Shown here in pieces: positions 34,044 to 64,000 of a DNA stretch of 64,000 nt. The notes under the pieces are model-generated. The model saw only the letters and a program-made list of their open reading frames with translations. It made no database searches and had not been told where the DNA came from. Source of the stretch: Deltaproteobacteria bacterium (GTDB lineage Bacteria; UBA10199; SPLOWO2-01-44-7); NCBI GenBank assembly GCA_016203765.1, contig JACQMB010000145.1, forward strand, positions 72,964 to 136,963, given 5' to 3'. The stretch's first letter is position 1. Each line of letters begins with the position of its first letter. Both the position numbers and the translations under genes were made by a program.

Positions 34044-34051
34044 TGATTTCG

Positions 34052-42202: not shown

Positions 42203-42406
42203 ATGAAGTTCAAAGGACTCAAAAGAGATCAGCGGGGTCAAACCGCCACCGAGTATATGCTGATTATCGCGGTGGTGGTGCTGGGAGCTGTCGCCGGAGC
42301 CTCGATATTAATTCCGGAGTTTCGGGATGGGGTGACGCAGCTCTCCGCAAAAATTAAGAATATTCTAACGAATACTTCTACCCCAACGGCTCCAATTAAT
42401 CCGTAA
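42203..42406 (+). CDS. flp: Flp-family type IVb pilin
   Basis: 67 aa. Flp motif RGQTATEYMLIIAVVVLGA. AAGGAGG RBS 9 nt upstream. Confidence 0.8.
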   Translation: MKFKGLKRDQRGQTATEYMLIIAVVVLGAVAGASILIPEFRDGVTQLSAKIKNILTNTSTPTAPINP

Positions 42407-42434
42407 GCCTAAGGCGAAAAGGAGTTTTTAATAA

Positions 42435-44104: not shown

Positions 44105-44114
44105 AAGGAAAACC

Positions 44115-44942: not shown

Positions 44943-44944
44943 AC

Positions 44945-48498: not shown

Positions 48499-49361
48499 GC
48501 ATCGGCGCGGTTTTGGTCAGTCTGTTTTCCGCGGGGTCGGTCGGCCTCCTCTTTTCTTTATGGCTCCAGGAGCTGGCCAAATTTTTGCGCCGGCAGATCG
48601 AGGCCGAAGAGGCCGCCTGCGAGGTTTGGCTCGCCAAATCGCTCATTGAATTGAAGGGGGCGGAAAAAAAGCTGTTTTGCCTTTGCGGGCCTCTGTTGGG
48701 CATTATCCTTTCCTTTTTGCTCCTCCCCGGCGTTTTTTGGAAGATCGCCGGGGCCTTGCTCTCCGCCCTCATCCTCAAGCGGCTGGGAAGGAGACTGGCC
48801 CGCCGTCTTTACCGGCGGCGGATCAAGGAGATTCAAAACGTTTTTGTCGACACCCTCGGGCTGGTGGGGAATGCCCTCCGCTCGGGACTCTCCCTTTATC
48901 AGGGTTTTGAGATGGCGGTCGAACAGATGCCCGGCCCGATCGCGCAGGAATTAAACCAGGTCCTGTCGGAGAACCGCCTCGGCCAGACCCTGGAGGCGGC
49001 CCTCGTCAACATGAAAAACCGGGTTCCCCTCAAAGAGGTGGCCAGCATGGTCGACTCGGTCTTGATCTTGAGGGAGACCGGAGGCAACCTGGTGGAGACC
49101 TTCGAGACGCTGATCAATACCCTGCGGGAAGAACAAAGGGTGCAGGACAAAATCAAAACATTGACCACCCAGGGCCTGGCCCAAGCGGTGGTGATTGTCC
49201 TCCTCCCGTTTGGTCTGGGAGGGGCCCTCTACTGGGTCTCCCCCGATTATATGTCGCCCTTGTGGAGCCACTGGCTGGGCTGGATCTGCATTTTGCTTAT
49301 CCTGTTTCTGCAGGGGCTGGGGGCTTTTTTGATGAAAAAAATTATTTCGATCAGGATTTAA
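48495..49361 (+). CDS. tadB: TadB-like inner-membrane platform protein (T2SS-F domain)
   Basis: Three TM segments with a T2SSF-like central domain, immediately after the ATPase. Confidence 0.7.
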   Translation: MSIGAVLVSLFSAGSVGLLFSLWLQELAKFLRRQIEAEEAACEVWLAKSLIELKGAEKKLFCLCGPLLGIILSFLLLPGVFWKIAGALLSALILKRLGRRLARRLYRRRIKEIQNVFVDTLGLVGNALRSGLSLYQGFEMAVEQMPGPIAQELNQVLSENRLGQTLEAALVNMKNRVPLKEVASMVDSVLILRETGGNLVETFETLINTLREEQRVQDKIKTLTTQGLAQAVVIVLLPFGLGGALYWVSPDYMSPLWSHWLGWICILLILFLQGLGAFLMKKIISIRI

Positions 49362-49363
49362 CG

Positions 49364-50218
49364 ATGCGAAAATTTTTAACCGTCCTTTTGATGTTAATCT
49401 CTTTTTCCCTCTTCGGCGGCGATGCGGAGGAGGTCCTGCTCCAGTTTCGTCCGACGCCGCGCCCCCTCAGTTATCTGGCCGCCTTTCATCTTCAGGAAAC
49501 CGACCTCATGAATATCGCCATGGAAACGGGGGAAAGCAAAATCCTGCAACGGGAGAAGAAACACTACATGGAAATTCGCAAGGATCTGACCCGCCGGGGC
49601 AGTCAGACCGATATCCCCTTTACGGAGACGGCGGTCCAGGCCTCCCTTTTGGACAACACCGCGAAGATTCATATCCTCAAGAACGAGTCGGGAGAGGGGC
49701 GGACCGCCAAGCCAAGGACGATGGTCACCAGCCAGTTTATCAACGGCCGGCTGGTCCAGCCCTTCGACCTCGCCGATTTGAGCGCGGCCGGTCTGCCGCT
49801 TTTGTTTTCCGATCAAAAGGTGAAACAGGGGAGCCTATGGGAACGCCCGATCGATTTCAAAAGGGAAAACCTCCCCCCGCTGGCCTTCAACACGAAATAC
49901 GAGGTCGTCGCGTTTCAACACCTGGCCGGGCACCCCGTGGCGGTAGTAACCTACACGTTCAAGGCCGCTTTGCAATCCACCCTGATCAGCCAGGATCCCC
50001 TCATCCAGCAAAAGGTGGCCGAATTAAAAAGGGAGAACGTGGAGAGCGTAGCGTATAAGGGAGAGGGAAGGTTCACGTTTGACTACCGCGAGGGTTTGTT
50101 GCTGACCCACAGCCTGACGATGAGCGAGAAAATCAGCAAATCCTATATCGAGGGGCGGCAAAGAAAATTGCAGGATATCGTTCGCATTTATGAATATTCG
50201 GAGGCGTTGATTCCGTAA
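49364..50218 (+). CDS. Secreted hypothetical protein
   Basis: Signal peptide MRKFLTVLLMLISFSLFGG. The ORF-track upstream part is read-through. Confidence 0.45.
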   Translation: MRKFLTVLLMLISFSLFGGDAEEVLLQFRPTPRPLSYLAAFHLQETDLMNIAMETGESKILQREKKHYMEIRKDLTRRGSQTDIPFTETAVQASLLDNTAKIHILKNESGEGRTAKPRTMVTSQFINGRLVQPFDLADLSAAGLPLLFSDQKVKQGSLWERPIDFKRENLPPLAFNTKYEVVAFQHLAGHPVAVVTYTFKAALQSTLISQDPLIQQKVAELKRENVESVAYKGEGRFTFDYREGLLLTHSLTMSEKISKSYIEGRQRKLQDIVRIYEYSEALIP

Positions 50219-50223
50219 CACCG

Positions 50224-51141
50224 ATGGCGCTGATTTTTTACAACCTGATCTTCTCGGCGGCGGCCGGCTTCTGGGGGCTGACCCTTTATGAAATGTCGCA
50301 ACAACGCCGCGCCCAGCGGCGGCTGACCCAGCGGGAGGAGGCGGTCGACAAAAAAAGCCTGGTCGACTACACGTTTCGCCCCATTTTTACTTCCTACAGC
50401 CATCTCTTCAAAAAAATCCACCTGGAATACTACCGCCGCTTCTTGAGGCGAAAATTCGTGCAGGGGGCGGTCGCGCGCAAATACAATGAGGAAATCTTCT
50501 GGGCCTTTCAAATTTTCATGGGGTTTTTGTTCGTCGCCCTCTACTACGGGCTGGCGGCCTATTGCCGTTTTCTTGGGTTGGCAATCCCCACCCCGTTCTG
50601 GCTGATGGTCATGGTTTTTGCCGCGGGGCTCGGTTATCCTCTCCTCTGGCTCCATTCCCTGACCAAAAAGAGGCTGGGGGAGATCGTGCGTCTTTTTCCG
50701 GAATTTGTCACCAACCTGGCCCTCGCGGTGGAGGCGGGAATGGATTTTTTCAGCGCCATGGGCCGTTACGCGAAAAATTTCGAACAGAATCCGCTGGGCC
50801 GCGAGCTCCAAACCGTCATCACCGAGGTGCAGTTGGGGGCCTCGCGCGAGGAGGCGCTCCGGCACCTGGCCGGGCGGCTTCAAATCAGGCCGGTCAGCGC
50901 CTTTGTCTCGGTGATGGTGCAGACGACCCGGCTGGGGACCTCCGTTGGCCAGGTCCTGCGGGTTCAGGCCGAACAACTGAGGCGGGAACGCTTCGAGGCG
51001 GCCGAACGGGCCGGGGTGAAGGCCTCGCAAAAGATTTTGTTTCCCCTGGTTTTTTTCATCATGCCCGCCGTCTTTTTGCTGATCTTCGGGCCCCTGATCG
51101 TCAAATTATTGACCGGCGGGATTGAAGCGTTGTTCCTGTAG
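50224..51141 (+). CDS. tadC: TadC-like inner-membrane platform protein (T2SS-F domain)
   Basis: TM topology and the T2SSF block LALAVEAGMDFFSAM...LRVQAEQL. Confidence 0.7.
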   Translation: MALIFYNLIFSAAAGFWGLTLYEMSQQRRAQRRLTQREEAVDKKSLVDYTFRPIFTSYSHLFKKIHLEYYRRFLRRKFVQGAVARKYNEEIFWAFQIFMGFLFVALYYGLAAYCRFLGLAIPTPFWLMVMVFAAGLGYPLLWLHSLTKKRLGEIVRLFPEFVTNLALAVEAGMDFFSAMGRYAKNFEQNPLGRELQTVITEVQLGASREEALRHLAGRLQIRPVSAFVSVMVQTTRLGTSVGQVLRVQAEQLRRERFEAAERAGVKASQKILFPLVFFIMPAVFLLIFGPLIVKLLTGGIEALFL

Positions 51142-51148
51142 GAGGAAA

Positions 51149-52306
51149 ATGGAAAAAGATTACGCGATGCTGTTGAGAGACAGAACGGAGGGCCTGATCA
51201 AAAAGGTCAGGGAGATGTCCTGGGTGCAGAAGGCCGTCCGGTATTTCCTGACCCTCGAGTGGTCGGAAAAGATTCTGTTCCTTTTCGGCGTGACGTTTTT
51301 TCTGCTGATGATGACTGGCCCCTACGCACTGCTCTACCGGCAGACGGGGGCGCTCCTTTCGGAGGCCCAACTGCGGGGATTGACCCTGGCCCGCTATTTG
51401 GCCGCCGGCAACCAGGCCGCCTTTACCCGGAAACAGGAGGTCCTCTATTCGGTGGAGGGGGTGATCCATGAACGGGGCGTGGAGGATGCCATGATCACCG
51501 ATCTGGAAGGGACCATCCTTTCCCCCGTGGAACGTTTTGGCCAAACTCTGCCTTTGACCCGGAAGGTTGAAAACCCCAACCAGTGCCAGCGTTTTAAAAA
51601 GGGTTTCGATCTTGAGTTTGTCTGCCCCCTGTTCCGGTGGCTTGAATCCTCGGACGGTTTTTCGAGGCAAACCATCGGCCTGGCCTATCTGAAATACAAT
51701 GCCCGGGAAAGCCTTGACCTTTTGGGTTCGCAAACTTTTCAGATGATCAAATACATATTTTTGTTCGCCTTTTTGATCGGGCTGACCGCCTACGCCTTTT
51801 TGGCTTTGACCCAAAAATCGCTCCTCGATTTTAAATTCGCCGTCCGGACGGCCGCGCGAAGCGGGAATCCGCTCGACATCCCCAGGCATTTTAAGGCCCT
51901 GCGCGAGATCGCCCTGGAAATCCAGGAACTCCAACAGCAAAAGGCCGCGGTGGGGCGCGCCGACTCCCCCGCCCCCGCCGACGCCTCCTCGCTCGCGGGA
52001 GAGATGATGGCATGGCTGGGGCCTCTTCTGAAAGAGCCGGTCCTGCTTTTGGACGAACGACAGCAGATTGTCCATTGCTCCAAGCCGCTCCGGGAAAAGT
52101 GGAAGGCCGCCCCGGAGGGCCACATCCTTCGCGCCCTAAAGGACTCCCCCTTCATGGAGCCCCTCATCGATTTTGTTGGGGCGTTGGGCGAAAATCCGGA
52201 GGAACCCCACACGCAAACCATCAAGGGCCTGGGATCCCTGCGGGGGGAATCCCTCAACCTCCAGGGAAAAAAATATTTTCTTATTCGAAAGGGGGGAACG
52301 GAATAA
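51149..52306 (+). CDS. Bitopic membrane protein with a periplasmic domain between two TM segments
   Basis: TM1 ILFLFGVTFFLLMMTGPYALLY and TM2 IFLFAFLIGLTAYAFLAL. No catalytic motif. Confidence 0.4.
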   Translation: MEKDYAMLLRDRTEGLIKKVREMSWVQKAVRYFLTLEWSEKILFLFGVTFFLLMMTGPYALLYRQTGALLSEAQLRGLTLARYLAAGNQAAFTRKQEVLYSVEGVIHERGVEDAMITDLEGTILSPVERFGQTLPLTRKVENPNQCQRFKKGFDLEFVCPLFRWLESSDGFSRQTIGLAYLKYNARESLDLLGSQTFQMIKYIFLFAFLIGLTAYAFLALTQKSLLDFKFAVRTAARSGNPLDIPRHFKALREIALEIQELQQQKAAVGRADSPAPADASSLAGEMMAWLGPLLKEPVLLLDERQQIVHCSKPLREKWKAAPEGHILRALKDSPFMEPLIDFVGALGENPEEPHTQTIKGLGSLRGESLNLQGKKYFLIRKGGTE

Positions 52307-52852
52307 ATGCTCAGCACGGAGGGTAAAAAATTATTTAAAAAGGCCCTGATCGGGATGGGCGGCTTTTTTTGCGTTCTCCTGATCCTGCGCCTTTTTATCT
52401 CCCCTAAAAAACCGTCGCCGGCCGCGGAGACTGGACGGGACGAGAGTTTTTTTCAGCTCTCTGAAATGGAAATCGAAAAACTGCCGGACACAAAGGAAGA
52501 TGCGGCAACCTACAGCGCGAATCAGAGACTGGTCCATCTCCTCCACTCCTATGCCTTCAACTATTTTCAATCCAAACGCCTGAAAAACGCGATCTCCCTT
52601 TGGGAAACCGCCGGCTACCTGGAGCCGGGCAACGCGGTGATCGGGCTTCGGCTGGAGCAGGCCCGGGAGGCCCTCAACTACCTGGTGCAGGAGAATATCG
52701 CCTTGGGGATGCGCGATTTTAAGTATCTCCGCTATGCCGAGGCGATCGAGCATTGGCGCCGGGCTTCCAATCTGGTCGCCGGCATCGATCCCGCGGCCCA
52801 TGAAAAAATCAAGCGGTGGATCACCAAGGCCGAAAGGAAACTGAGACAATGA
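52307..52852 (+). CDS. Small membrane-anchored TPR-like protein (TadD-like candidate)
   Basis: N-terminal TM followed by TPR-like helices. Confidence 0.35.
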   Translation: MLSTEGKKLFKKALIGMGGFFCVLLILRLFISPKKPSPAAETGRDESFFQLSEMEIEKLPDTKEDAATYSANQRLVHLLHSYAFNYFQSKRLKNAISLWETAGYLEPGNAVIGLRLEQAREALNYLVQENIALGMRDFKYLRYAEAIEHWRRASNLVAGIDPAAHEKIKRWITKAERKLRQ

Positions 52853-54210
52853 GTTTTACCTTTGATTATCAATTCCGGGGGAAAAGGGGGATTCTGGAGA
52901 TCGAAAAGGCCGGCGTTTTTTATTTGGACCTGTCGGAGGAGAGGCCGATCGCCTATTCCAACCCCGCCGCCGGCCCCCCTTTTCTGATTCTCTGCGGCCG
53001 GCAGGAGGTCTTTGCGGTATGGGAGGGGAAGGGACACCGCCTTGCCCCCGAACAACCCTTTTCAGCAGGGGGGCTGACCCTTTCCTGGCGGCCCGAGGAG
53101 ATTGCCTGGGGGAGGATACAACCCTATTTACAAACGGTCCTTCATTGGATACAGACCGAGAGAAAGAAGGCGCTGGGGTTGGGTTCGGCAGTACTCGTCC
53201 TGCTGGTGATCGGAGTGATTCTGGCGGGTTCCAAGGAGGGGAAATTGACGCAGGAAACCGTGGTCCAGGCCACCCAGGAGTTGAAAGGGAATGCCCTTTT
53301 TGCCGTGCGCCTTAAATTGTCTGAACAGGCTCTTGAAGAAAAAAATTATCCGTTGGCCGCGGAGTTGGCCGACAAGGTCCTCACAGCCTCGCCCGCGAAT
53401 CCCCAGGCCATGGCCCTGAAAGAAAAGGCGCTGGCCTCCTTGGAGGCCTCGCAGAAGGAATCCCAAATAGAGGTAAAAAAAGAAATCCGCTTTAAGGAAA
53501 TTTTAGACCAGGTTACCGCCCTGATGGCGGCCAAGGATTATCATGGCGCCCTCTTCCGGGTTCAGCAGGTCCTGGAGGCCGACCCGGGACATGCCGAGGC
53601 CTTCCGCATGCATGAGGCGATTCAAAAGGAACTGGCGAATCTGGAACAAAAAGAGATCCAAACCGTGGGCGCCGATGCCGAAAGTTTGGAACGAGCGGAG
53701 GAACTTTGGAAGAGCGGGAAGGGGGCCTTCGACGCCGAAAATTACGGGCGGGCCTGGCGGAATTTTATCGACGCCCTGGCTTTGCTTAAAGAAAGAAACC
53801 TGCATCCCCCGTTCCGCGTTGATCTCAATGAGCTTTTGACGCAAACCGAGGCCGCCCTGGCCGACCAGGCCCGGCCCATGGTGGATCAGGCCCGTGAATT
53901 AAGAAACCTGGGCCAGAACAGCCAGGGTCAAAAGAGGGCCGAATATTTTTCGGAGGCCCTGACCCGCTACTACGCGGCCGAAAAAATTTATCCCGAATTT
54001 GAAGGACTCCGCAATGAAATCGGAATGGTCATCGAACGCCTCAACAAGGCGGTGGAGCCCTTCTTTGTGGAGGCCCAGACCATGAAGGATCTGGAGGGGT
54101 GCTGTCCCTCCCATCCCCATTTCAAAAAGGTCATGGGTCTTGCCAAATACGAATCGGTTCCGTTATACAAACAAGCCAAGGAGATGCTGGAGATATGTCC
54201 GTGCCGGTAA
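52849..54210 (+). CDS. TPR-repeat protein with a central TM segment
   Basis: TM LGLGSAVLVLLVIGVILAGS followed by TPR-like repeats. Confidence 0.4.
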   Translation: MSFTFDYQFRGKRGILEIEKAGVFYLDLSEERPIAYSNPAAGPPFLILCGRQEVFAVWEGKGHRLAPEQPFSAGGLTLSWRPEEIAWGRIQPYLQTVLHWIQTERKKALGLGSAVLVLLVIGVILAGSKEGKLTQETVVQATQELKGNALFAVRLKLSEQALEEKNYPLAAELADKVLTASPANPQAMALKEKALASLEASQKESQIEVKKEIRFKEILDQVTALMAAKDYHGALFRVQQVLEADPGHAEAFRMHEAIQKELANLEQKEIQTVGADAESLERAEELWKSGKGAFDAENYGRAWRNFIDALALLKERNLHPPFRVDLNELLTQTEAALADQARPMVDQARELRNLGQNSQGQKRAEYFSEALTRYYAAEKIYPEFEGLRNEIGMVIERLNKAVEPFFVEAQTMKDLEGCCPSHPHFKKVMGLAKYESVPLYKQAKEMLEICPCR

Positions 54211-55757
54211 AAAAAATTTTGATTCTCCTCTGCGCGGGTCTTTTTCCCTGGAGCGGTCCCTGGGCCAAGCCGGCCGTCGAGCCGATCTATATCCCGCTCG
54301 ATCATGTCCGCGTCCCCCATCCGGGCGCCGGCTGGAATTACCGGGTCGGCTCCGACCAACTGCGCATCGAATTCAAGGAAGAGGCCTCCCTCCGCAACGG
54401 GGCCTACCCGAGCGTTGTCCTCCTCTCGCGCCGGATCGTGGATGCCTCCCCCTACGCCGCGGCCTGGCAGCGCGCGGAACTCAAGGGTCTCCCGAAACGC
54501 TACCAGGTTGAAGCCGGCGACGCGGCGGCGGCGGATGCCTTTCAGATCAACTATTCCTTCACCCAAAACCTGATGCGCGTGGAGGGGGCCCGGTTCTACA
54601 AGCCGCAGGGCCACTGGCTTTACCTGTGGGAGTGTCAGCGGGAACAGGGCGGGGGCGTTGATTTGAAAAAATGGTGCCGGGACCTGTTCGCGAACATCCA
54701 ATGGTCGGAGGATATCGCGATCGCGTCGCCCGAACAGGTGGACGATTTGGATGCACTGGTCGCGAAGATGTCCTTTGCCCCCCCTCAATTGCAAAAACAG
54801 GAAACGGATCTGATCGCGGGCCTGCAAAAAACCCCGCTGACCTTCAACGACCTGATGGCCTACGGGGCCTTTCTGATGGTCCGCTCGCTCCTCTATCCTC
54901 CCCCCGAAGGACAGCAGGGGGACCTGATCGAGAATTTCAAAAAGATGTCGCTGATTTTCAGAAAAGATCCGCGCTACCGGACGGTGAGCGAATGGTTTGC
55001 GGTGCACGCCGAGGTCCTGGGAGGCCTGTTTAATTTGAAAAAGGCCAAAGAGGTGGCGCAGTCGAACGAGCGGCCTCCCTTCTGGCTGTTGAGCTTGTGG
55101 GTGGAGCCCCTCTCCCCGGGGATCGCCGCGAGCATGATCGCCCGCGAGGATTTTGACAAGGGCCTGGAACACTACGTGCAGGGGACGCTCCTTCATAAGA
55201 CCGGTCATGGGGACGAGGCCCTCACTCCTTTGAACAAGTCGGCCGGCCAATTTGGGGCGCTGGCTTGGGAACAGATGGCGCGCATCCATCTTGAAAAACA
55301 AGACCGCGATAAGGCGAAAATTTACGTTGAAAAAATCCTGAAAAAAAGTCCGGACCATGTCGGCGCGAAACTCCTTCTGGCCCGCATTTTGGAGGCGACC
55401 GAGGAGCCCCCCCAACTGGAGGAGGCCCAGAAGATCTACGCTGACTTGACCGCAAAGAAAGACCTCTCCGGGGACGAAAAACTGAATATCTTTTTGCAAA
55501 AGGCCAAAAACAGCATCCATCCCGAAATCCAGACGGAGTATTATGAAAAGGTTTTGGAGATTGACCCGAATCATCTGGACGCCATCTACGCGCTGGGCCG
55601 CCTCTATCTTTTGGAATATAATGACAAAAAGAAGGGGGTCCAATATTTTGAAAAATTCATTGCGAAGGCCCCCAAGGAAGACGAACGCGTGCAGGAATTG
55701 ACCGCCATGGTGCGCGATCTCCGCCATGAGATCTATTCGAGTCAAATTCCGGAATAG
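54195..55757 (+). CDS. Secreted TPR-repeat protein
   Basis: Signal peptide MSVPVKKILILLCAGLFPWSGPWA and C-terminal TPR repeats. Confidence 0.45.
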   Translation: MSVPVKKILILLCAGLFPWSGPWAKPAVEPIYIPLDHVRVPHPGAGWNYRVGSDQLRIEFKEEASLRNGAYPSVVLLSRRIVDASPYAAAWQRAELKGLPKRYQVEAGDAAAADAFQINYSFTQNLMRVEGARFYKPQGHWLYLWECQREQGGGVDLKKWCRDLFANIQWSEDIAIASPEQVDDLDALVAKMSFAPPQLQKQETDLIAGLQKTPLTFNDLMAYGAFLMVRSLLYPPPEGQQGDLIENFKKMSLIFRKDPRYRTVSEWFAVHAEVLGGLFNLKKAKEVAQSNERPPFWLLSLWVEPLSPGIAASMIAREDFDKGLEHYVQGTLLHKTGHGDEALTPLNKSAGQFGALAWEQMARIHLEKQDRDKAKIYVEKILKKSPDHVGAKLLLARILEATEEPPQLEEAQKIYADLTAKKDLSGDEKLNIFLQKAKNSIHPEIQTEYYEKVLEIDPNHLDAIYALGRLYLLEYNDKKKGVQYFEKFIAKAPKEDERVQELTAMVRDLRHEIYSSQIPE

Positions 55758-55761
55758 GACG

Positions 55762-56109
55762 ATGGGGGTTGCCCTGGCCGAGGGGCGGCTGGCCAGGCTT
55801 TTGGGAATGAGTTTTCGCGGCGCGTGGAAGAAAGAAGGGATGCTGTTTGTTTTTAAAAAACAGGGCCGCTATCCTTTTTGGATGTGGGGGATGCGCCTGC
55901 CGATCGATCTGGTCTGGTTAAAGAAACGGACGGTGGTCGGTTTTGAGGAAAATCTCCAGCCCCCGGCCTCCCGTTGGCACCTGCTCTTTCCCTTTCTGCT
56001 GAGGCGCTACCGTCCGCCGGAGGCCGTGGACGGCGTGCTGGAAGTTCCGGCCGGGTTTTGCCGGCAGAACCGGCTGAAAAGGGGGGAGGTACTCGATGCG
56101 CAAAATTAA
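55762..56109 (+). CDS. DUF192 (COG1430) family protein
   Basis: GMLFVF...YPFWMWGMRLPIDLVWL matches the DUF192 core. Confidence 0.5.
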   Translation: MGVALAEGRLARLLGMSFRGAWKKEGMLFVFKKQGRYPFWMWGMRLPIDLVWLKKRTVVGFEENLQPPASRWHLLFPFLLRRYRPPEAVDGVLEVPAGFCRQNRLKRGEVLDAQN

Positions 56110-56662
56110 CAACAGACAAGGACAAGCCGCCGTGGGTTATGCCCTGGCCCTGGCCGTCGTGGCGGTCGGCATGGGTGTGGTTTTAAACAGCCCCGAGCTG
56201 AGGCAGGGGATTGCCGAATTTTACACCAACGCCGCCACCCGCGTTATTCATGGCGGAAAATTCGGCGAATCCGATTTGACCGCCGCCAAGGATGAAACAT
56301 GGGGATCAGCGCCTTCGGATGAAACGGCCGGAACGCCGACTGAAAGCGGAACTCCCTCCGGCGGGGACGGCACGGGTGCCGGAGATGGTTCCTCAGGCGG
56401 TTCTTCGGATTCCGGGCAGACCACCCAGACAGGGGGCGGCGGCTTGGGGACCGGGGGGGTGAATACCCCGGGAACGGTTCCGGGCGAGACGACTGCTTCC
56501 ACGGGTCCCTCGACGCAACCCACCGCGCCAACGGGCTCCGTCCCGCCGGAACCCGGCGCGCCGAAAGGTCCCTTTGCCGATCAAAATATGTCTTCCGCCC
56601 CGGTTGAAAATCCGCAGGAGCCGGCGCAATGCGAAGCGGCGGCGGATAGCGCCGGAATATGA
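56096..56662 (+). CDS. Pilin-like protein with a non-canonical Flp-type N-terminus and a Gly/Ser/Thr-rich tail
   Basis: NNRQGQAAVGYALALAVVAVG resembles the Flp G/xxxxEY motif with E replaced by G. The C-terminal ~120 aa is G/S/T/P-rich. Stop overlaps the RHS-2 start. Confidence 0.45.
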   Translation: MRKINNRQGQAAVGYALALAVVAVGMGVVLNSPELRQGIAEFYTNAATRVIHGGKFGESDLTAAKDETWGSAPSDETAGTPTESGTPSGGDGTGAGDGSSGGSSDSGQTTQTGGGGLGTGGVNTPGTVPGETTASTGPSTQPTAPTGSVPPEPGAPKGPFADQNMSSAPVENPQEPAQCEAAADSAGI

Positions 56663-59600
56663 TGAAAAAACAAGTGAGCGCAAAACTTGTTTCATCGGGG
56701 GCCGTGATTTTAGGCTTGGCATTTTTTGTTTTTGTTTCCGGTCCGTTCGTCTCATCCATCCAAAGCCAGGATATCGATCAAAGCATTCAATCCCTGCGGT
56801 CGTTTGACTACCAGAAGGCGACCGACCTGGGAAAACTGGAGGACTACGCCAAGAAAGAGGCGCGGAAGTTCATGGGCCAGGCGGAGGTCAAGGAGAAGAT
56901 GGAGAGTTGGGTGAATGAGGCCAAGGAGGCTTGGACGGACGCGCACGGCAAGATGTATCAATTGCCGGCTCGGGGGGCCTCTGTTCCCTGGGAGTCGAGG
57001 CCGGAATACCGCGACTATTTGAAAAAAGAATTGACCAACCAGATGCAGGTGAAATTTCCGGGCATGATGGATCAGTTCATGAAGAACAACGTCTTGCAAG
57101 GGGCGCAGGTCGCGGCGGAGGAGGCGGCGAAGGTGGAGAAGATGATCGGGGAGGTGACCGACCAGACCCTGAAGAACGTGGAGGGGATCGTGGGGGGAGC
57201 GATCGACCATTGGGGAGAGACCATACAAAGCGGCGGGGGGATGTTGACGGACAAGTTATTGGAGCCCGCCGCCTTTTTGGGCGAGATGCAGGAGAAGCTG
57301 GCCGGCAAGATGGGGGAGGCGACCAAGCTGGGGATGAAGGAATTTATCGACAAAGAGATGATCGGTCTGCTGGGGGAGAATTTTGAGCAGAAGCTGACCG
57401 ATCTGACCCAAGGGGCGGCGGAGACGTTGGAGGGGATCAAAGACAAGCTGGCGGACATCAAGCACATCGATTTAACCTCGATCGAGCAAAACCTGCAGGG
57501 GATATTGGACGCCTCCGGTCTTCCGAATCCTTTTAATTTATCGGCCGGCGATTATTTGGGACATCAGTTTCACAAGCTGAAGGGACTGCCCCCGGCGACC
57601 CTTCCGGACATCGAGATTCCCTCCCCGGCGATGGCGGGGATTTGGGCCTCTTCGGCGGCGAAGCATTTTGCCAAGGCCTTCGTGAAGTTTGATGAGCTCC
57701 GTGCCGGGATCAACCTGATCAAGCATTTGATTTGGCAGATGGAGAAGAAGCCTCGGTCGTTCATGATGTTTGGGGGTGATTTTGCGGGGCGCGGTATCTT
57801 TGGCGCGCACGGGGCGGCGGGGCTGACGCCGGAGCAGAAGGCCAAGCTGGAGGCGCTGATCGCGGAGGCGGAGGGCCTGCCGGAAGACATGGATCCGACG
57901 AAGATGAAGGAGAAGCTGGAGGGATTCAGGGATATTTTGGGCGAGTTCAAGGTGGAGATGGACAAGCAGATTTTGGCGATGGGGAAGCCCAACGAGGGTT
58001 ACGATCAACCCGATTTGGAGGGTGAGGAGAAGGAAAAAGATTGCGAGAAGGACCCGGAGCGGGAGGAGTGTCAATACGAGGAGGTAAAAGTAGCCAGCAA
58101 GGAGGATCAGACCGGGGCGACGGAGGAATCCCCTGAGGCCGACAGCGATTCGCCTTTGGACCCTGTTATTTTGTACAGCGGGGAGTACGCGTTAAAAGCG
58201 ACTGATTTGAAATTAAGGGGCCGGGGCCTCGATTTTGAACTGACCCGCCACTACCGCAACCAATGGGAGCGGATGGGGCCGCTGGGATACAACTGGACGC
58301 ACAACTACGATGAGAAACTGATTCTCGATTCCCAAAAGCGGGACATCGTGCATCAATCGCCGGAAGGCCAGCGTTATTGGTATCGCTGGGATGAGAAAAA
58401 ACAGCGCTTTGATTCTCCGCGCGGCTTTTTCACGAAGCTGACCCCAACCGAAGGGGGATTTGTTCTAAAGCAATCCGAAGGGCTTAACTATTATTTCAAC
58501 GGCGAAGGGCGGATGACCAGGATTGAAGACGCTCATCAGAACGCCCTGCGATTTGAATACGGCCTCGCGGGCGAGACAATGGTTTTGGTGCGCGTGATAG
58601 ACACGCTGGGGCGCGCGGTGGAGTACCGTTACAATGATGAGGGTTTGATTGCCTCGGTGGTGGATCCCTTTGGAAGGGAAGTGGTTTATACCCATGACGC
58701 TCAAAAAGACCTTGTGTCTGTCCGCTCGCCGGTGAGCGATCAATATCCGCAGGGGAAGACAACCCGCTACGCTTACAGCGGCGGGCTGTTGGAGCCGAGG
58801 CTCAATCACAATCTCAACATGATCATGGATCCGAAGGGGCAGATTTATTTAAAAAACGTCTACGGGGCCGAGGGATTGGAAAAGGACAAGATCACGGCGC
58901 AGTTGTTCGGGGGAAAAGAGAGCCTTCAGATGCGGGTGGAATACGAGGCGTTAAAGGCCAGCAAGCCGACGGTCAACACGGCGTTAAGCCGGACGACGGT
59001 CTGGGACCGCAAGGGGGTTCAACATAGCTATGAGCACAACGCCTGGGGCCTGCGTTTGAGTGAGCGGGCGGGAGAAAATCCGGCCGAGCAGTTTGAATAT
59101 AACCAGGACGGGCTTTTAACCAAACACGTTTATCCCGGCGGCAAGGAGGAGATTTTTACCTACGAAGGGAATCATCTCAAAGAATATCAACTGAAAGGCG
59201 AGGATGGAAAATCCCTGCTGGGCCGTTATGGCTATGACAAGCAATGGAATAAGGTTGCCTTTGAAGAAAGGATCTCCGGCACCGAGGTTCGCCGGAAAGA
59301 ATACGCGTACAATGACGCGGGGCTTTTGAGCGAGGCGCGTGAGGGGGGTGTCACCACCCGGTATGAGTACGATCCCTACGGCCGGATTGTTAAAAAGATC
59401 GAAGGGGAAAAGACGCGGACCTACGCCTATGACAAGGCCAACCCCATTGTTATTACGGACAGCACGGAGGGGGGAAGCCGCAGTATCACCATCGGTTACG
59501 ATCTTTACGGCAACATTCAGGCGGTGACCGATCCTGCGGGGAACCGGACCCGCTATTGGCTGAATGCCAACAACCTGGTGGTGCAGAAGGAAGATGCCTT

Positions 59601-62600
59601 GGGCCACAAGACCCATTACGCTTACGATGCCAATGACAATTTGGCCGAGGTGACCCGCGACGTGGCCGGAGCGCTGAACATCTCCGATCTCGGTTATCAA
59701 TTAAGAGAGCGCTACAACTACGATGTTTTGGATAACTTGGTCAAAAAAGAGTCGCAGGTCAACCGGGAGAAGTGGGTGGCGGAGGAGTATGCCTACGATC
59801 TCAATGAAAACCTGACGCGGATTAAGGGGATCGACGGGACCGCGAGGGAATTCGTCTACGACCCCTTCAACCGCGTGACGGAGGAGAAGGCCGGAGGCGA
59901 GACGCAGAGAAAGCTCGAATACGACGCGGACGGTTTTTTGATTGCCGAGAGCGACGCCAAGGGAAACCGGAAGGAATATCAAAGGGATTCGCTTTCACGG
60001 ATTGCCAAGTTTATCGATCCGTTGGGGAGTCAGCTGGCCCTGAATTACACCGGCCTGGGCGAGATTGCCGGGTATCAGTTTAAAGACGCCAAGGCCGCCA
60101 TTTTAAAGGAGGTCCGGTTTGCCTACGACGCCCTGGGGCGCAAAGTCTCCGAGGAAGAGAGGCTGGTCGGCTCGGCGGAAGGGACGCGGGATTGGGTGAA
60201 AAAGGAGTTTGTTTACGCGGGGCCCTTCTTAAAGGAAGTTAGAGATTCGCTGGGGCTGGTGCAGAAGTTTGGCTACAATTCCTTCGGCGAGGTCGCCGCC
60301 ATTGAAGATGCCTCCGGCAATGCCATTCAGCTTAGCTATGATTCGCGGGGTCTGATGACTCAAAGACAAATCACCAAAGCAACGCGTTCCTTAACCGAGC
60401 GCTATCAATACGATGCCTTGGGCCAGCTCATCAGCCAAACCGATGCCAAGGGGGCGAGTTTAAAAAGGGTTTATAACAGCTTGGGCCAGTTGATTAAAGA
60501 GATCGACCCTCTCAATCAGGAGACCCTCTATTATTATGACGGGATCGGAAGACTCCTAAAGGAAGTGCAGGGCGAAAGAGAGCGAAAACTTCTGTGGAAT
60601 GCCGACCAAATGCTGGAGGCTTTTATCGACGGCCAGGGCAATAAGGTCCAATACACTTACGACAACCAGGGGCGCAAAAAGGCCGAAGTGGGAACCGACG
60701 GCGTTCGGAGGGAATACGGCTACGACGCGGCGGGCAACCTGGCCTCTCTGACCGCCGGCGCCGCAAAGTATGACTACACCTATGACGCCCTCAATCGTTT
60801 GATCGCGAGGGCCAGCGGTGATTACAAACAAACTTACGGCTATGATCCGTTGGGGAGGCTGGTCGCCAGCACGGATCTCAATGACCCTGCCGATCCGGCA
60901 GACGACACCACCGCCCGGTTTGAATACGACCCTCTTGGCAATCTGGTCAAGGAAACTCAGGGTGAGCGGGTGTTAAGCAAGCATTTCAACATCCGGGGCC
61001 AAAAAACCGCCCTCTTCTACCCTTCGGGCGAAGAAGTAACGCAAAGTTTTGATCCCGCGGGCTGGCTGGAAAATATCCAGGTCAACGGCCAAACGATCAG
61101 CCAATATCAATACGCCCTGTTGGGTTTTACCCAAAAAGAAACCTTGGGCAACGGCATTACCAAAAACTTGAATTATGACAACTTAATGCGGCTGGTGGAG
61201 GAGAACTACCAAAAAGAAAAGAATATTCTCTCCAAACTGGCTTATGCCTACGATCTCAAAGGGAGAGTGATTTTAAAAGAGGATGTAAAGCAAAAGACCT
61301 GGGAAGTCTTTGGCTACAATAATTTGGATCAACTGGAAAAAGTAGGGAAGACCGAAGGTCCCAGAGGGAACAAAAATTCATGGGATCAGGCCTGGGCGCT
61401 GGCCGCAACCAAACGCGAATACACCTACGCCGCCGAGGGTCAGTGGCGAAGCATTATTGAGAAAGACGGAAAGAAGAAAGAAGAAGTCACAAACATCGCC
61501 TCCGGCGCGGGGTTTCAATACGCCTCCTTCAACGGCGAGTCCCTGGCCTATGATGAGCGCGGCAATCTCGCCTCCCTTAACAATAAACTTTCCTTTGAAT
61601 ACGATCCCTTCAACCGCTTAACCCAAGTCAAAGACAAGGCCACCAATAAGCTCGTCGCCAAATACACCTACGACGCCCACAATCGCAGAGTCAAAAAACA
61701 GATTTTCTTTGAAAACGTAAGGATGGGGCCGTTCGCGGCGAATGAGGCGGCGGTTTCGGATGAGGCCGCTGACGCGGGCCCCTACATCCGTTCCATCGAG
61801 TTCGTCTATGACAACTGGAACCTCATCGAAGAATACGAAAACGGCCAGCTCGGCAACGTCTACATCCACGGCAAATCGCTCGATGAACCCGTCGCGTTAA
61901 AGAGCAACGGCAAGATCTTCTATTACCACAGAGACCGCTTGGGATCGGTGACGGGCTTGAGCGATGAGCACGGCCGGATGGCCCAGCGCTATGAGTACAC
62001 AGAGTACGGCGCGCTGACCGCGCGGGGGCCCGAACCGCAACCAAAACTCCGCTACGCCGCCGCTAAGGCCTCCGATCTCGCCCCTATCGCCCCCATCGAC
62101 AACCCCCTCACCTACACCGGCCAATATTTCGACGCCGAAACAGGGCTCTACTATTATAAGAATCGCTACTACGCCCCCCAACTCGGCCAATTCACCTCGA
62201 AGGATCCTTTGGGCATGGTGGATGGGCCGAATGTGTATGCGTATGTAAATAGCGACCCGTTAAACTGGGTGGATCCGACGGGGACGTTTATTGGGTATCA
62301 TAGTAGTGGTGAAAAGGTAGGCACTCTAGCTAATGCTAGAGCAGAGATTGATCAGATTGTATGGGCATATGTTGAACAGCGTAGAATTGAAGAAAATAAA
62401 TGTCGAACGGGCGATTATAACGTAAAAGAAAATAAGAACATAAACTATAGTGAGTTGTTAGAAATTCTTACGACTCATTTTGATACAAGCAATAATCGCT
62501 TTTTTTACACATCAAAGGGTGGTTTTATGGATGTGAAGCATGTAGTTGCGGCAACTCAGAAAGCCTATGAATTGCCATGGTACATACCAGACTCTGCAGT

Positions 62601-63009
62601 ATTGGTTGGAGGTATGGAAGTTGAAAGAATTCAATCTAGAGCTGGTGATAAGAGTGCGTGGGGGGCTGAAGATTTAGTGTCAAATAAAGCAGGTGTGAGG
62701 TTTGAAAATAAATTGCCTGATAATTTGGCTGAGTTAGGAGCAACCTTTGAAAATTTTTTCGACAAAAAATATGGTGGACAGGGCGCAACCCCATCACAAT
62801 CTGATATAAGGAAAATGAATCAAGTCCTCAACTTTGGGTACAGACCATTATTATCTCCAGATGACAAAAGAATACTTACAACTGACGATGGAATAAAATA
62901 TCTATCTAGTGGGGACACATTGATTGATATAATCAATTTAAATGAATATAGGGAAGGTCAAAAAAACCCACAACCTATGCATCCTCCTTTTGAATCGTTT
63001 AATTTATAA
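56659..63009 (+). CDS. RHS/YD-repeat polymorphic toxin 2 (paralog of RHS-1 with a different C-terminal toxin domain)
   Basis: Same architecture as RHS-1, with a near-identical YD shell and core. After DPLGMVDGPNVYAYVNSDPLNWVD it diverges into an AT-rich ~240-aa tip. Confidence 0.9.
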   Translation: MMKKQVSAKLVSSGAVILGLAFFVFVSGPFVSSIQSQDIDQSIQSLRSFDYQKATDLGKLEDYAKKEARKFMGQAEVKEKMESWVNEAKEAWTDAHGKMYQLPARGASVPWESRPEYRDYLKKELTNQMQVKFPGMMDQFMKNNVLQGAQVAAEEAAKVEKMIGEVTDQTLKNVEGIVGGAIDHWGETIQSGGGMLTDKLLEPAAFLGEMQEKLAGKMGEATKLGMKEFIDKEMIGLLGENFEQKLTDLTQGAAETLEGIKDKLADIKHIDLTSIEQNLQGILDASGLPNPFNLSAGDYLGHQFHKLKGLPPATLPDIEIPSPAMAGIWASSAAKHFAKAFVKFDELRAGINLIKHLIWQMEKKPRSFMMFGGDFAGRGIFGAHGAAGLTPEQKAKLEALIAEAEGLPEDMDPTKMKEKLEGFRDILGEFKVEMDKQILAMGKPNEGYDQPDLEGEEKEKDCEKDPEREECQYEEVKVASKEDQTGATEESPEADSDSPLDPVILYSGEYALKATDLKLRGRGLDFELTRHYRNQWERMGPLGYNWTHNYDEKLILDSQKRDIVHQSPEGQRYWYRWDEKKQRFDSPRGFFTKLTPTEGGFVLKQSEGLNYYFNGEGRMTRIEDAHQNALRFEYGLAGETMVLVRVIDTLGRAVEYRYNDEGLIASVVDPFGREVVYTHDAQKDLVSVRSPVSDQYPQGKTTRYAYSGGLLEPRLNHNLNMIMDPKGQIYLKNVYGAEGLEKDKITAQLFGGKESLQMRVEYEALKASKPTVNTALSRTTVWDRKGVQHSYEHNAWGLRLSERAGENPAEQFEYNQDGLLTKHVYPGGKEEIFTYEGNHLKEYQLKGEDGKSLLGRYGYDKQWNKVAFEERISGTEVRRKEYAYNDAGLLSEAREGGVTTRYEYDPYGRIVKKIEGEKTRTYAYDKANPIVITDSTEGGSRSITIGYDLYGNIQAVTDPAGNRTRYWLNANNLVVQKEDALGHKTHYAYDANDNLAEVTRDVAGALNISDLGYQLRERYNYDVLDNLVKKESQVNREKWVAEEYAYDLNENLTRIKGIDGTAREFVYDPFNRVTEEKAGGETQRKLEYDADGFLIAESDAKGNRKEYQRDSLSRIAKFIDPLGSQLALNYTGLGEIAGYQFKDAKAAILKEVRFAYDALGRKVSEEERLVGSAEGTRDWVKKEFVYAGPFLKEVRDSLGLVQKFGYNSFGEVAAIEDASGNAIQLSYDSRGLMTQRQITKATRSLTERYQYDALGQLISQTDAKGASLKRVYNSLGQLIKEIDPLNQETLYYYDGIGRLLKEVQGERERKLLWNADQMLEAFIDGQGNKVQYTYDNQGRKKAEVGTDGVRREYGYDAAGNLASLTAGAAKYDYTYDALNRLIARASGDYKQTYGYDPLGRLVASTDLNDPADPADDTTARFEYDPLGNLVKETQGERVLSKHFNIRGQKTALFYPSGEEVTQSFDPAGWLENIQVNGQTISQYQYALLGFTQKETLGNGITKNLNYDNLMRLVEENYQKEKNILSKLAYAYDLKGRVILKEDVKQKTWEVFGYNNLDQLEKVGKTEGPRGNKNSWDQAWALAATKREYTYAAEGQWRSIIEKDGKKKEEVTNIASGAGFQYASFNGESLAYDERGNLASLNNKLSFEYDPFNRLTQVKDKATNKLVAKYTYDAHNRRVKKQIFFENVRMGPFAANEAAVSDEAADAGPYIRSIEFVYDNWNLIEEYENGQLGNVYIHGKSLDEPVALKSNGKIFYYHRDRLGSVTGLSDEHGRMAQRYEYTEYGALTARGPEPQPKLRYAAAKASDLAPIAPIDNPLTYTGQYFDAETGLYYYKNRYYAPQLGQFTSKDPLGMVDGPNVYAYVNSDPLNWVDPTGTFIGYHSSGEKVGTLANARAEIDQIVWAYVEQRRIEENKCRTGDYNVKENKNINYSELLEILTTHFDTSNNRFFYTSKGGFMDVKHVVAATQKAYELPWYIPDSAVLVGGMEVERIQSRAGDKSAWGAEDLVSNKAGVRFENKLPDNLAELGATFENFFDKKYGGQGATPSQSDIRKMNQVLNFGYRPLLSPDDKRILTTDDGIKYLSSGDTLIDIINLNEYREGQKNPQPMHPPFESFNL

Positions 63010-63014
63010 TTTGC

Positions 63015-63365
63015 ATGGCTAGATGGCTAAATTTTTACATCATTTTGGTTCTAATCTGTATTTCCACGTGCACTCAGAACAAGACTGATCATATTACCCA
63101 AAAAGATCCTTTTGAGATTTGGCGTTCAAAAAATTTAGGAGATCGGGGCAAAGTTGCTTATAAGGTGAGTCAGGAAATTTTAAAAAGAAAGCCGAGTAAA
63201 GATGAGATGCTTCAGTTATTAGGCGACCCCGACTTTAATGAGGGGGAATGTTTTTTGTATAAATATACGGCTTACTATAATTCTATGTATAATGACTGGC
63301 CCGAAACTCTAAGTGTTTGCTATAACCAGAATGGACAACTTCAAAAAGTTTTTCGAATGGATTAA
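63015..63365 (+). CDS. Putative immunity protein for the RHS-2 C-terminal toxin
   Basis: 116-aa AT-rich ORF 6 nt after the RHS-2 stop, with an N-terminal hydrophobic or lipobox-like segment. Confidence 0.5.
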   Translation: MARWLNFYIILVLICISTCTQNKTDHITQKDPFEIWRSKNLGDRGKVAYKVSQEILKRKPSKDEMLQLLGDPDFNEGECFLYKYTAYYNSMYNDWPETLSVCYNQNGQLQKVFRMD

Positions 63366-63372
63366 ATATTCT

Positions 63373-63386
63373 GGGGACACGATACT
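63373..63386. repeat. REP-like half element (ggggacacgatact)
   Basis: Same family as 32437, 33995 and 22412. Lies between the immunity gene and the transposase. Confidence 0.6.
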
Positions 63387-63480: not shown

Positions 63481-64000
63481 ATGGCGAGGCCGTTACGGAT
63501 TCAATATAAGGGCGCTTGGTATCATGTGATGAACCGGGGAGGGGGTCGTCAGCGAATTTTTTGTGCGGGCAAGGATTATGAGATTTTCGTGAAACTTTTG
63601 GAGGAGTCGGTTGGACTTTGGGGCATTCGGATTCATGCCTTCAGTTTGTTGCCGAATCATTATCATTTATTGGTGGAGACCCCTCGGGGGAATTTATCGC
63701 GAGCCATGCGGCATATCGATGGAGTTTATACGCAACGGTTTAACAGGAATCACAAACGAGATGGGCATTTGTTTCGAGGGCGATATAGATCGATATTAGT
63801 GGAAGAGGAAGGCTATTTGGTGGAGTTGCTCCGCTACATTCATTTGAATCCGGTACGGGCGGGTTTAGTGAGGAAGCCGCAGGAGCATTGTTGGACGAGC
63901 CATCATGTTTACTTGGGAGGGGCCAAGGATCGCGGGTGGTTAACGACGGAGCGATTGCTTTGGTATTTTGCGAAGAGGTTATCGAAAGCCCGCAGGAAGT
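63481..64000 (+). mobile_element. REP-associated tyrosine transposase (RAYT, IS200/IS605 TnpA-like Y1 HUH), 3' end beyond the window
   Basis: WYHVMNRGGGRQRIF, HUH motif LPNHYHLL, and the catalytic-Tyr region RYIHLNPV. The frame is open to the window edge. Confidence 0.75.

Follow-up and report, generated by a model that had tools for sequence, protein, structure and literature searches.

Genes and Domains at the Locus

The stretch of DNA analyzed here (the window; 64 kb, positions 72,964 to 136,963 of contig JACQMB010000145.1) contains two genes for RHS proteins, designated RHS-1 and RHS-2, which are about 85% identical paralogues in inverted orientation and flank a complete Tad/Flp pilus locus (41385..56662). 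The RHS-2 product corresponds to NCBI MBI4125687.1, annotated as 'RHS repeat protein' from a metagenome-assembled genome (MAG) of a Deltaproteobacteria bacterium. We consider it probable that both genes encode Sec-exported polymorphic toxins, of which RHS-2 forms a toxin-immunity pair of a CapCone-1 C-terminal domain (tip 2) and a BamE-like protein encoded by the next open reading frame (ORF), while RHS-1 carries a different cassette. The features on which this reading is built are the following:

34835..41191, minus strand: RHS-1, whole gene
35447..41191, minus strand: conserved part of RHS-1 (Pfam, TIGR03696, translation)
56659..63009, plus strand: RHS-2, whole gene, with the stop codon at 63007..63009
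56659..62274, plus strand: conserved part of RHS-2 (Pfam, TIGR03696, comparison with RHS-1)
62275..63006, plus strand: RHS-2 toxin tip of 244 amino acids (aa; residues 1873–2116), assigned to CapCone-1 of the Lipocone superfamily (phmmer, profile, AlphaFold2 model, G+C content)
63015..63365, plus strand: ORF116, 116 aa, candidate immunity gene for tip 2 (homology to tip-linked ORFs, anchor, G+C content)

The conserved part of RHS-2 consists of a Sec-type signal peptide, a header of about 500 aa, DUF6531, RHS repeats and the RHS core, which terminates in DPLGMVDGPNVYAYVNSDPLNWVD. Pfam RHS_repeat was detected with an E-value (E) of 1.1e-76 in RHS-2 and 4.7e-71 in RHS-1, together with DUF6531 in both (1.3e-15 in RHS-2). 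The NCBIfam model Rhs_assc_core (TIGR03696), whose cut-off of 32.5 bits was exceeded by both proteins, matched RHS-2 at 7.1e-26 and RHS-1 at 8.2e-25, ending at nucleotide (nt) 62283 and nt ~35438, respectively. A Sec signal peptide is present in both proteins; in RHS-1 the TTG listed as start codon probably lies upstream of the true start, and the signal peptide begins at Met37 (nt ~41083).

In the MAFFT alignment the identity of about 85% extends up to DPLNW[I/V]D, being mostly 80–100% per 50-column block of the core and lower in the first ~350 columns and in columns ~850–1000. Past the core motif DPLGM[I/V]DGPNVYAY..DPLNW[I/V]D it collapses to about 15–25%, and this collapse coincides with the end of the TIGR03696 match. 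An original prediction, made from the letters of the DNA, had claimed that the two proteins become unrelated at this point, which was thus borne out. The two tips that it proposed are real as well, with its borders at 62290 and ~35480 each a few codons off: given the ends of the TIGR03696 matches, the tips occupy 62275..63006 (244 aa) and 34838..35446 (203 aa).

Assignment of the RHS-2 Tip to the CapCone-1 Family

An exhaustive phmmer search with tip 2 through 1.84 billion representatives retrieved 63 proteins. Nearly all of the matches were C-terminal and most followed the end of an RHS/YD core, such as RYY.P..GRF...DP.G. A k-mer-prefiltered search of 5.8 billion proteins with the same query returned nothing, and searches of PDB sequences with tip 2, with the RHS-1 tip (tip 1) and with the profiles A1, A3 and A5 gave chance matches only. 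The alignment A1, made from the RHS-2 tip and its 21 full-coverage relatives (22 sequences, 22–39% identity), has eleven invariant positions: G83, D86, H89, E117, Q120, S127, E132, D133, N137, G140 and P191. Most of them are concentrated in three elements:

62521..62541, plus strand: H2 motif G83-F-M-D86-V-K-H89, at the end of a beta-hairpin, the putative clasp, and at the start of helix 87–99 (A1 invariance)
62623..62634, plus strand: H3 positions E117 and Q120 (A1 invariance; model helix 107–122)
62653..62694, plus strand: H4 motif S127-A-W-G-A-E-D133-L-V-S-N137-K-A-G140 (A1 invariance)

The Lipocone superfamily, including CapCone-1, was described by Burroughs, Nicastro and Aravind (eLife 2025, PMC12419801). 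According to these authors, members of its ClaspCone-CapCone-TelC clade have a histidine in H2, a glutamate in H3 and an aspartate in H4. The H2 His has a Gly six residues before it and a DK/xD motif upstream; the H4 Asp is preceded by S/GxxSxx, a small residue and then Asn (D+4) come after it, and H4 is capped by a Gly. A beta-hairpin clasp, augmented by a further strand, leads into H2, and a cap covers the site. The Lipocone site further combines the H3 Glu with a second polar position in H3 (PMC12419801). In tip 2, G83/D86/H89 fit the published H2 rule (Gly at -6, xD upstream), E117 and Q120 correspond to the Glu and the second polar position of H3, and S127..D133, S136-N137 and G140 fit the H4 motif (Asn at D+4, the preceding small residue and the Gly cap). 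Position 130 is Gly in the RHS-2 tip and Ser, Gly or Ala in its relatives. H89, E117, D133 and N137 make up the predicted Lipocone active site, which is intact in tip 2.

Using CapCone core sequences from the source data of the same authors, the A1 profile matched all 16 sampled CapCone-1 members (E 7.6e-29 to 7.5e-8) and none of the eight CapCone-2 members (all E > 0.04), and tip 2 alone matched CapCone-1 protein MBK9402640.1 at 4e-16. At the sequence level, the membership of the RHS-2 tip in CapCone-1 is thereby shown. The original prediction had seen no nameable toxin motif in either tip, which no longer holds for tip 2 and still does for tip 1. It had also suggested structure prediction as a check, and for tip 2 the AlphaFold2 model computed on A1 was confident (mean predicted local distance difference test score, pLDDT, 89; predicted template modelling score, pTM, 0.87). 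In this model, a hairpin at 76–86 (strands E76-79/E83-86) directly precedes the His-bearing helix 87–99, followed by helices 107–122 (Glu) and 133–144 (Asp/Asn/Gly) and by a C-terminal alpha/beta module; three more short strands are present besides the hairpin. CapCone-1 domains are expected to be soluble, and the RHS-2 tip is hydrophilic (grand average of hydropathy -0.62; top 15-residue window 0.91), without a segment resembling a transmembrane (TM) helix.

An alternative placement in CapCone-DUF4056 (PF13265) was rejected, since tip 2 scored 16.9 bits against a cut-off of 23.6 bits, and over residues 70–99 only. Similarly weak matches to this family were found in eight of the 22 A1 sequences, and it was this sub-threshold match that led to the Lipocone paper. 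At two metagenomic loci (L012, 2312..3183, and L013, 2504..3375) the tip 2 homologue goes on in another frame (MMSFLKDNCGSESLPPATAG...), which suggests frameshifted, decaying copies of the toxin.

The Candidate Immunity Protein ORF116

The gap between the RHS-2 gene and ORF116 is 5 nt. The encoded protein is predicted to begin with a hydrophobic anchor or signal (LNFYIILVLICISTC), followed by a periplasmic domain that resembles BamE. Genome and metagenome scans yielded 16 loci encoding relatives of tip 2, and at five of them (L002, L003, L004, L006 and L008) an ORF of 120–135 aa either overlaps the toxin gene or lies within 15 nt 3' of it. The products of these five ORFs have a common pattern, F(D/S)P..W....P..RG.M ... 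LLG.PD, and ORF116 matched them in pairwise phmmer comparisons with E from 7e-7 to 3e-4. A leave-one-out hidden Markov model (HMM) built from the five foreign ORFs and run against 476 stop-to-stop ORFs of the window recovered only ORF116 (E 8.4e-10; next 0.47). An N-terminal hydrophobic segment was present in all six members of this immunity family (hydropathy of 2.3–3.2 in a 15-residue window); the ORF116 sequence ICIST followed by C is not a canonical lipobox. Pfam BamE gave weak matches in four of the six members, the best with E 2.5e-4. Against the PDB, the family profile matched BtiO, an immunity protein of the Bacteroides fragilis type VI secretion system (T6SS), with E 1e-3 (9uu1), an outer membrane protein (2pxg) with 0.017 and BamE chains with 0.2–1, which makes BtiO the nearest solved relative of the ORF116 family.

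Rapidly evolving, membrane-anchored BamE-like proteins are the commonest partners of Min-Wnt/CapCone toxins, and the Lipocone authors take them to point to periplasmic action (PMC12419801). In the network data of that paper, 94 of 237 CapCone-1 loci have an N-terminal RHS part and 23 of 237 a downstream Imm-BamE gene; the RHS/CapCone-1/Imm-BamE architecture has therefore been described already. For RHS-2, both the membership in the toxin and immunity families and the conserved gene pairing are shown by these sequence comparisons.

Base Composition and Cassette Borders

The G+C content (GC) is 52.6% for the window and 53.5–54.4% for the RHS cores. The original prediction had described AT-rich tips and small ORFs on a background of about 60% GC: the AT-richness was confirmed, the background figure was too high. 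The region 62290–63365 has 36.3% GC, the lowest value among all 1076-bp windows of the 64 kb, with 37.4% in the RHS-2 tip and 35.6% in ORF116. GC at third codon positions (GC3) amounts to 69.7% for the RHS-2 core but only to 28.3% for the tip and 36.2% for ORF116, so that the shift is one at the codon level and not just of amino acid composition. Maximum-likelihood GC change points at 62287 and 63371 delimit an RHS-2 island that comprises only the tip and ORF116 and agrees with their borders within about 12 nt.

The interpretation of the RHS-2 tip and ORF116 as a toxin-immunity cassette holds on three independent lines: the tip family is, in most matches, found C-terminally after RHS/YD core ends in other organisms, ORF116 is homologous to ORFs located directly 3' of tip homologues elsewhere, and the compositional island matches the borders of the tip plus the ORF. 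For RHS-1, for which such a cassette had been claimed as well, the claim stands in outline, supported by the recurrence of its C-terminal domain in Leptospira RHS proteins and by a linker shared with toxins that bear other tips. The AT-rich block there begins at ~35159, with some 96 tip residues preceding it, and extends to ~32367 according to the change points; the first 85 residues of tip 1 have 54.9% GC, so that the statement that both tips are AT-rich is correct for RHS-2 and, for RHS-1, only from ~35159. The small ORFs at 63015..63365 (116 aa) and 34546..34833 (95 aa; ORF95) exist as predicted.

The RHS-1 Tip and Its Island

The RHS-1 tip has two parts, and the AT-rich island of 2.8 kb that begins inside it contains four small ORFs (ORF95 and three more):

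35192..35446, minus strand: tip part 1, Gly-rich pre-toxin linker (LDVGGLIPGIGEPLDLLNAGIYTARGDYTNAALSAGAAIPFAGWVATGGKFVNKGAK) common to proteins P0001–P0004; GC 54.9%
34838..35191, minus strand: tip part 2, AT-rich domain of 118 aa (tblastn; GC 35.0%, GC3 27.1%)
34546..34833, minus strand: ORF95, 95 aa, candidate immunity gene for tip 1 (position; GC 32.3%)
34065..34505, minus strand: small ORF, 146 aa, AT-rich
33207..33974, minus strand: small ORF, 255 aa with a signal peptide, AT-rich
32538..33146, minus strand: small ORF, 202 aa with a signal peptide, AT-rich

The linker, i.e., the first ~85 residues of the tip with normal GC, is 44–60% identical to four database proteins (P0001–P0004). These share it and then continue into differing C-terminal domains, in P0004 a TNT NADase domain (Pfam 4.5e-38). 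The comparison shows, at the sequence level, a modular linker placed before different tips. A candidate family for it, Pfam PT-TG, was discarded after neither the linker nor P0001–P0004 matched this family at E <= 10.

Tip 1 is Lys-rich as predicted (14.8% K overall), and its last 118 residues are even more so (19.5% K, isoelectric point 9.7, no His or Cys). This domain had no match in Pfam, NCBIfam, PHROG or PDB, and the k-mer-prefiltered search of 5.8 billion proteins remained empty even at E <= 10. By tblastn, C-terminal matches with 46–51% identity (E 1e-21 to 1e-23) were obtained in RHS proteins encoded by eight Leptospira plasmids, the only relatives recovered; the alignment conserves YGKI.P, GLPK..WPT, YNK.LQ, GG..L.E and AG.TN..P.GIPQ. 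The domain might represent a toxin family without a described relative. Two assignments were tried and rejected: a PD-(D/E)xK nuclease (Tox-REase), because KPDD/ELIEVK align with NPKE/TLLELT in the Leptospira homologues and the motif is not conserved, and a TNT NAD+ glycohydrolase, because tip 1 has no Pfam TNT match and only the linker-sharing P0004 contains this domain. A single-sequence AlphaFold model of the RHS-1 tip reached a pLDDT of 43 and was not used.

ORF95 starts 1 nt past the RHS-1 stop codon. It has no hydrophobic segment (maximum hydropathy 1.21) and is predicted to be cytoplasmic. Its likely role is that of the RHS-1 immunity gene, a candidate assignment made by position only. 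A single homologue was found, in Leptospira interrogans p1 (NZ_CP043881.1; L025, 3405..3761), with 39% identity and E 5e-9. That gene is divergent from a cluster of genes for a NUDIX protein, NAD+ synthase (nadE) and a 2-oxoglutarate/Fe(II) (2OG-Fe(II)) oxygenase, neighbours that might hint at an NAD-related role.

The other three AT-rich ORFs, located within 32538..34505, may be orphan immunity genes. One of them is listed with 284 aa from a TTG codon; this start would cross a hairpin, so the real one is probably the ATG at 33974. Beyond the RHS core, neither the tips nor the small ORFs matched anything in PHROGs or NCBIfam, and the ORFs within 32538..34505 have no Pfam family either. HMM and ORF comparisons linked the RHS-1 island ORFs neither with the BamE-like family nor with one another. 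The island is adjoined by genes for an alpha-2-macroglobulin-like protein (1914 aa) and a PbpC-type penicillin-binding protein (23388..31452, minus strand); alpha-2-macroglobulin and PbpC are the usual periplasmic defence pair of bacteria.

Proposed Mode of Action

In Rhs/Tc proteins, the RHS aspartyl autoprotease frees the tip, which is kept inside the shell until delivery. By analogy with the solved Rhs/Tc proteins, the variable toxin domain of the RHS proteins would be cut off and retained within the RHS shell until delivery; of the putative autoproteolysis site, the sequence shows just the DPLG...DPLNW motif. The RHS-2 tip and its immunity gene would have arrived jointly as one AT-rich cassette of 1.08 kb, joined at the end of the RHS core. 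For RHS-1, a different cassette is envisaged, with its junction further downstream, after the reusable linker. The enzymatic activity, substrate, compartment, autoproteolytic release and neutralization of the RHS-2 tip are what we infer from this framework. The tip would act in the periplasm of the target cell by cleaving a phosphate-linked lipid head group, with the undecaprenyl-pyrophosphate linkage of lipid II or of a related carrier lipid as the best-guess substrate, after the example of TelC. TelC is the only characterized toxin of the clade and acts on lipid II (PMC12419801), and by this analogy a periplasmic attack of tip 2 on lipid II, or on a different lipid head group, is likely. ORF116 would serve as the cognate immunity protein which, held by its N-terminal anchor, exposes the BamE-like domain to the periplasm and there binds and blocks the toxin. 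The small and very basic domain of RHS-1 would probably act in the cytoplasm, possibly on nucleic acid. ORF95, lacking export signals and having the same composition as the toxin domain, fits a toxin acting in the cytoplasm.

Alternative Explanations

Several observations weigh against parts of this reading. ORF116 alone gave no Pfam BamE score, and the clade's usual Ser at D-3 is replaced by Gly130 in tip 2. In the literature searched there was no biochemically characterized CapCone-1 protein. An hhalign comparison of A1 with prok-TelC aligned the GxxDxxH motif only, at 0.6% probability, so that for the link to a lipid II phosphoesterase we rely on the published analysis; with the tip 2 model, Foldseek listed no similar solved structure, TelC included, among 50 matches. 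BtiO, the nearest solved relative of the ORF116 family, neutralizes the effector BteO, which was reported to be non-enzymatic (PMC12541434). On the RHS-1 side, the only homologue of ORF95 is a stand-alone gene not linked to a toxin, and behind the Leptospira toxins homologous to tip 1 the next gene encodes an unrelated protein of ~245 aa. The most general objection, that the AT-rich stretches reflect local composition (Lys/Asn-rich proteins, relaxed selection) and the small ORFs are chance frames, might appeal to the lysine content of tip 1 and ORF95, which lowers GC, and to the purely mechanical calling of ORFs. It is already contradicted by the fall of GC3 by 40 points, by change points that coincide with domain and gene borders, by the significant homologues that ORF116 and ORF95 each have elsewhere, and by homologues of the tips that, in Verrucomicrobiota, Planctomycetota and Leptospira, are fused to unrelated RHS proteins, and we consider it very improbable. 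Another explanation would leave tip 2 in the periplasm as a non-catalytic protein that binds an envelope protein, in the manner of BteO with the C-terminal domains of the OmpA family, and make ORF116 a mimic of that target. In its favour, the solved structure that the ORF116 family matches best is BteO's immunity protein, and BteO is reported to be toxic in the periplasm only, to show no peptidoglycan hydrolase or amidase activity, and to depend on R143/H144, H167/E168, D187 and D191 (PMC12541434), which are spaced much like K88/H89, E117, D133 and N137 of tip 2. However, neither A1 nor the CapCone-1 profiles retrieved the BteO chain 9UU0 from PDB sequences, so homology between BteO and tip 2 is not shown; BteO was also absent from the 50 Foldseek matches listed for tip 2, BamE-like immunity proteins are paired with several unrelated toxin types (PMC12419801), and an invariant His/Glu/Asp/Asn set in 22 sequences of 22–39% identity would sooner be expected of a catalytic site. 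The consulted sections of the BteO report contain no lipid substrate assays. On balance, pure binding by tip 2 seems improbable to us. The same spacing can be read in the opposite direction: the reported essential residues of BteO are spaced like the H2 His, H3 Glu, H4 Asp and D+4 position of Lipocone proteins, and BteO may itself be an unrecognized Lipocone enzyme rather than a non-enzymatic binder. If tip 2 is an active Lipocone enzyme, its substrate might instead be a membrane phospholipid or a carrier lipid of lipopolysaccharide or exopolysaccharide, attacked in a phospholipase D-like manner. The superfamily includes the phospholipid head-group exchange enzymes PTDSS1/2, its authors allow for other lipid targets in toxin families besides TelC, and the CapCone-1 H4 motifs differ from those of TelC (PMC12419801), to which no profile link was obtained here. 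The action of TelC on lipid II speaks against this option, which we regard as unlikely.

The identity of the RHS-1 antidote is the point on which an alternative deserves the most weight. ORF95 might be a hitch-hiker, the immunity gene being another ORF of the 2.8-kb island or absent altogether. This would agree with the Leptospira toxins, 46–51% identical to tip 1, preceding ~245-aa ORFs that have no relation to any ORF 3' of RHS-1; with the position of the sole ORF95 homologue beside NUDIX and nadE genes with no toxin adjacent; and with the presence of three further small ORFs in the island. Set against it are the 1-nt distance of ORF95 from the RHS-1 stop, its extreme GC resembling that of the toxin domain (32% vs. 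35%), and its lack of export signals, which fits a basic toxin acting in the cytoplasm; in addition, a single toxin family with differing immunity families is known elsewhere (PMC12419801). We therefore retain ORF95 as the candidate immunity gene of tip 1 and treat the hitch-hiker explanation as a serious, if rather unlikely, one.

Repeats and the Tad/Flp Locus Around the Cassettes

Palindromes resembling repetitive extragenic palindromic (REP) elements accompany both islands, and a Y1 transposase gene begins beyond that of RHS-2:

63370..63384, plus strand: REP-like half-site TCTGGGGACACGATA, positioned exactly where the RHS-2 AT-rich island ends (GC change point 63371)
32432..32491, 33995..34050, 34049..34100, 63370..63384 and 22421..22435: REP-like copies (repeat search)
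63481..64000, plus strand: first part of a transposase gene of the Y1 type (IS200/RayT-like), cut off by the end of the window (sequence; PF01797 Y1_Tnp on the copy in contig L023)

The REP-like palindrome with the core GGGGACACGATA is present seven times in the window, where 0.08 occurrences would be expected, and its 55-nt hairpin units are 96% identical. The hairpins at 32432..32491, 33995..34050 and 34049..34100 separate the small ORFs of the RHS-1 island. The Y1 transposase gene begins 116 nt past ORF116, and its product may be the enzyme that mobilizes the REP-like elements.

The pilus locus between the two RHS genes includes the following:

41385..56662: Tad/Flp locus genes, with the Flp pilin (42158..42406), TadE/G-like proteins, RcpC/CpaB, secretin, TadA ATPase, TadB/C and a TPR protein
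56096..56662, plus strand: Flp-pilin-like ORF, 188 aa, with the N-terminus NRQG followed by QAAVGYALALAVVAV and a long Gly/Thr/Ser/Pro-rich tail

The 188-aa ORF had no Pfam match. It overlaps the start codon of RHS-2 by 4 nt, so that RHS-2 looks co-transcribed with the tad genes as the last gene of the tad operon. No marker of T6SS, PAAR, the type VII (T7SS) or the type IX secretion system (T9SS) was found in the window. A speculative idea, to which we assign a low probability, is that the two Sec-exported RHS toxins are cargo of the Kil-like Tad/Flp machine that they flank. If true, a contact-killing apparatus of the Tad type would be linked to identifiable toxins, one acting in the periplasm (CapCone-1) and one in the cytoplasm, a link not known for the Myxococcus Kil system. 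Of all features of this region, only its association with the Tad locus might be truly new, and the presence of RHS toxins at both of its ends in a deltaproteobacterial MAG offers a testable idea on how RHS toxins with signal peptides leave the cell.

Significance and Comparison With Known Systems

Cassettes of an RHS tip plus an immunity gene are textbook knowledge, and the finding itself is therefore expected. Judged by its sequence, the RHS-2 pair is an ordinary member of a class that was described, computationally only, in 2025. Its value lies in being a clean and compact example of the CapCone-1/BamE-like pairing, so far defined in silico only: with the predicted catalytic residues, domain limits and cassette borders mapped, it is a convenient test case for the cleavage of lipid II or another head group by CapCone-1. 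The RHS-1 tip adds a case in which cassettes are exchanged at a second junction, situated behind a reusable linker, and a small basic domain with no match in the libraries.

Classical Rhs/YD toxins (T6SS Rhs effectors, WapA and the Tc toxin TcC) consist of a repeat shell and a variable C-terminal tip, with a TIGR03696 core ending in DPxG...DPxxW; the immunity gene lies next to the tip, in a cassette that stands out by its composition. Both RHS proteins described here share with them the repeat shell, the TIGR03696 core and the variable tip, as well as an adjacent immunity gene, for RHS-1 a candidate by position, in a cassette of distinct composition. In contrast to the classical systems, there is no PAAR/VgrG context, and the genes flank a Tad/Flp pilus locus.

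The RHS-2 pair resembles the published CapCone-1 systems in sequence, in the diagnostic motifs, in the N-terminal RHS part and in the downstream gene for a predicted membrane-anchored, BamE-like immunity protein. It differs from them in the Gly at position 130, where Ser is usual, and in the Sec signal and the absence of PAAR, T6SS, T7SS and T9SS markers in the window. Furthermore, a conserved extra C-terminal module of ~95 residues is common to the RHS-2 tip and the 21 relatives closest to it (LGG...IRNFGY.P.L...GI.Y.SSG), in place of which the retrieved Bacteroidota-type members bear a different tail.

TelC/TipC of Streptococcus intermedius, as summarized in PMC12419801, combines a lipid II phosphoesterase toxin of the LXG type (TelC) with a membrane-anchored immunity protein (TipC). 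By the published classification, TelC belongs to the same Lipocone clade; with CapCone-1 it shares the His/Glu/Asp pocket, an action confined (for CapCone-1, by prediction) to the outside of the cytoplasm, and an immunity partner that sits on the outer side of the membrane. TelC is, however, delivered as an LXG protein by T7SS and not as a Sec-exported RHS protein, the immunity fold is different, and the relationship was not reproduced here (hhalign 0.6%; no Foldseek match among the 50 listed). BteO/BtiO of the Bacteroides fragilis T6SS (PNAS 2025, PMC12541434; PDB 9UU0 and 9UU1) includes in BtiO the solved protein that the ORF116 family profile matches best and, according to that report, joins a toxin acting in the periplasm with a periplasmic immunity protein, as is proposed for the RHS-2 pair; unlike the RHS-2 tip, BteO is described there as delivered by T6SS, with a TM helix of its own, and as a non-enzymatic binder of OmpA. 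Finally, the RHS proteins of Leptospira plasmids (e.g., WP_243828119.1 and WP_126160293.1) are the counterparts of RHS-1, their last ~110 residues being 46–51% identical to the tip 1 domain, with the difference that they lack the Gly-rich linker and are followed by the unrelated ~245-aa ORF in place of ORF95.

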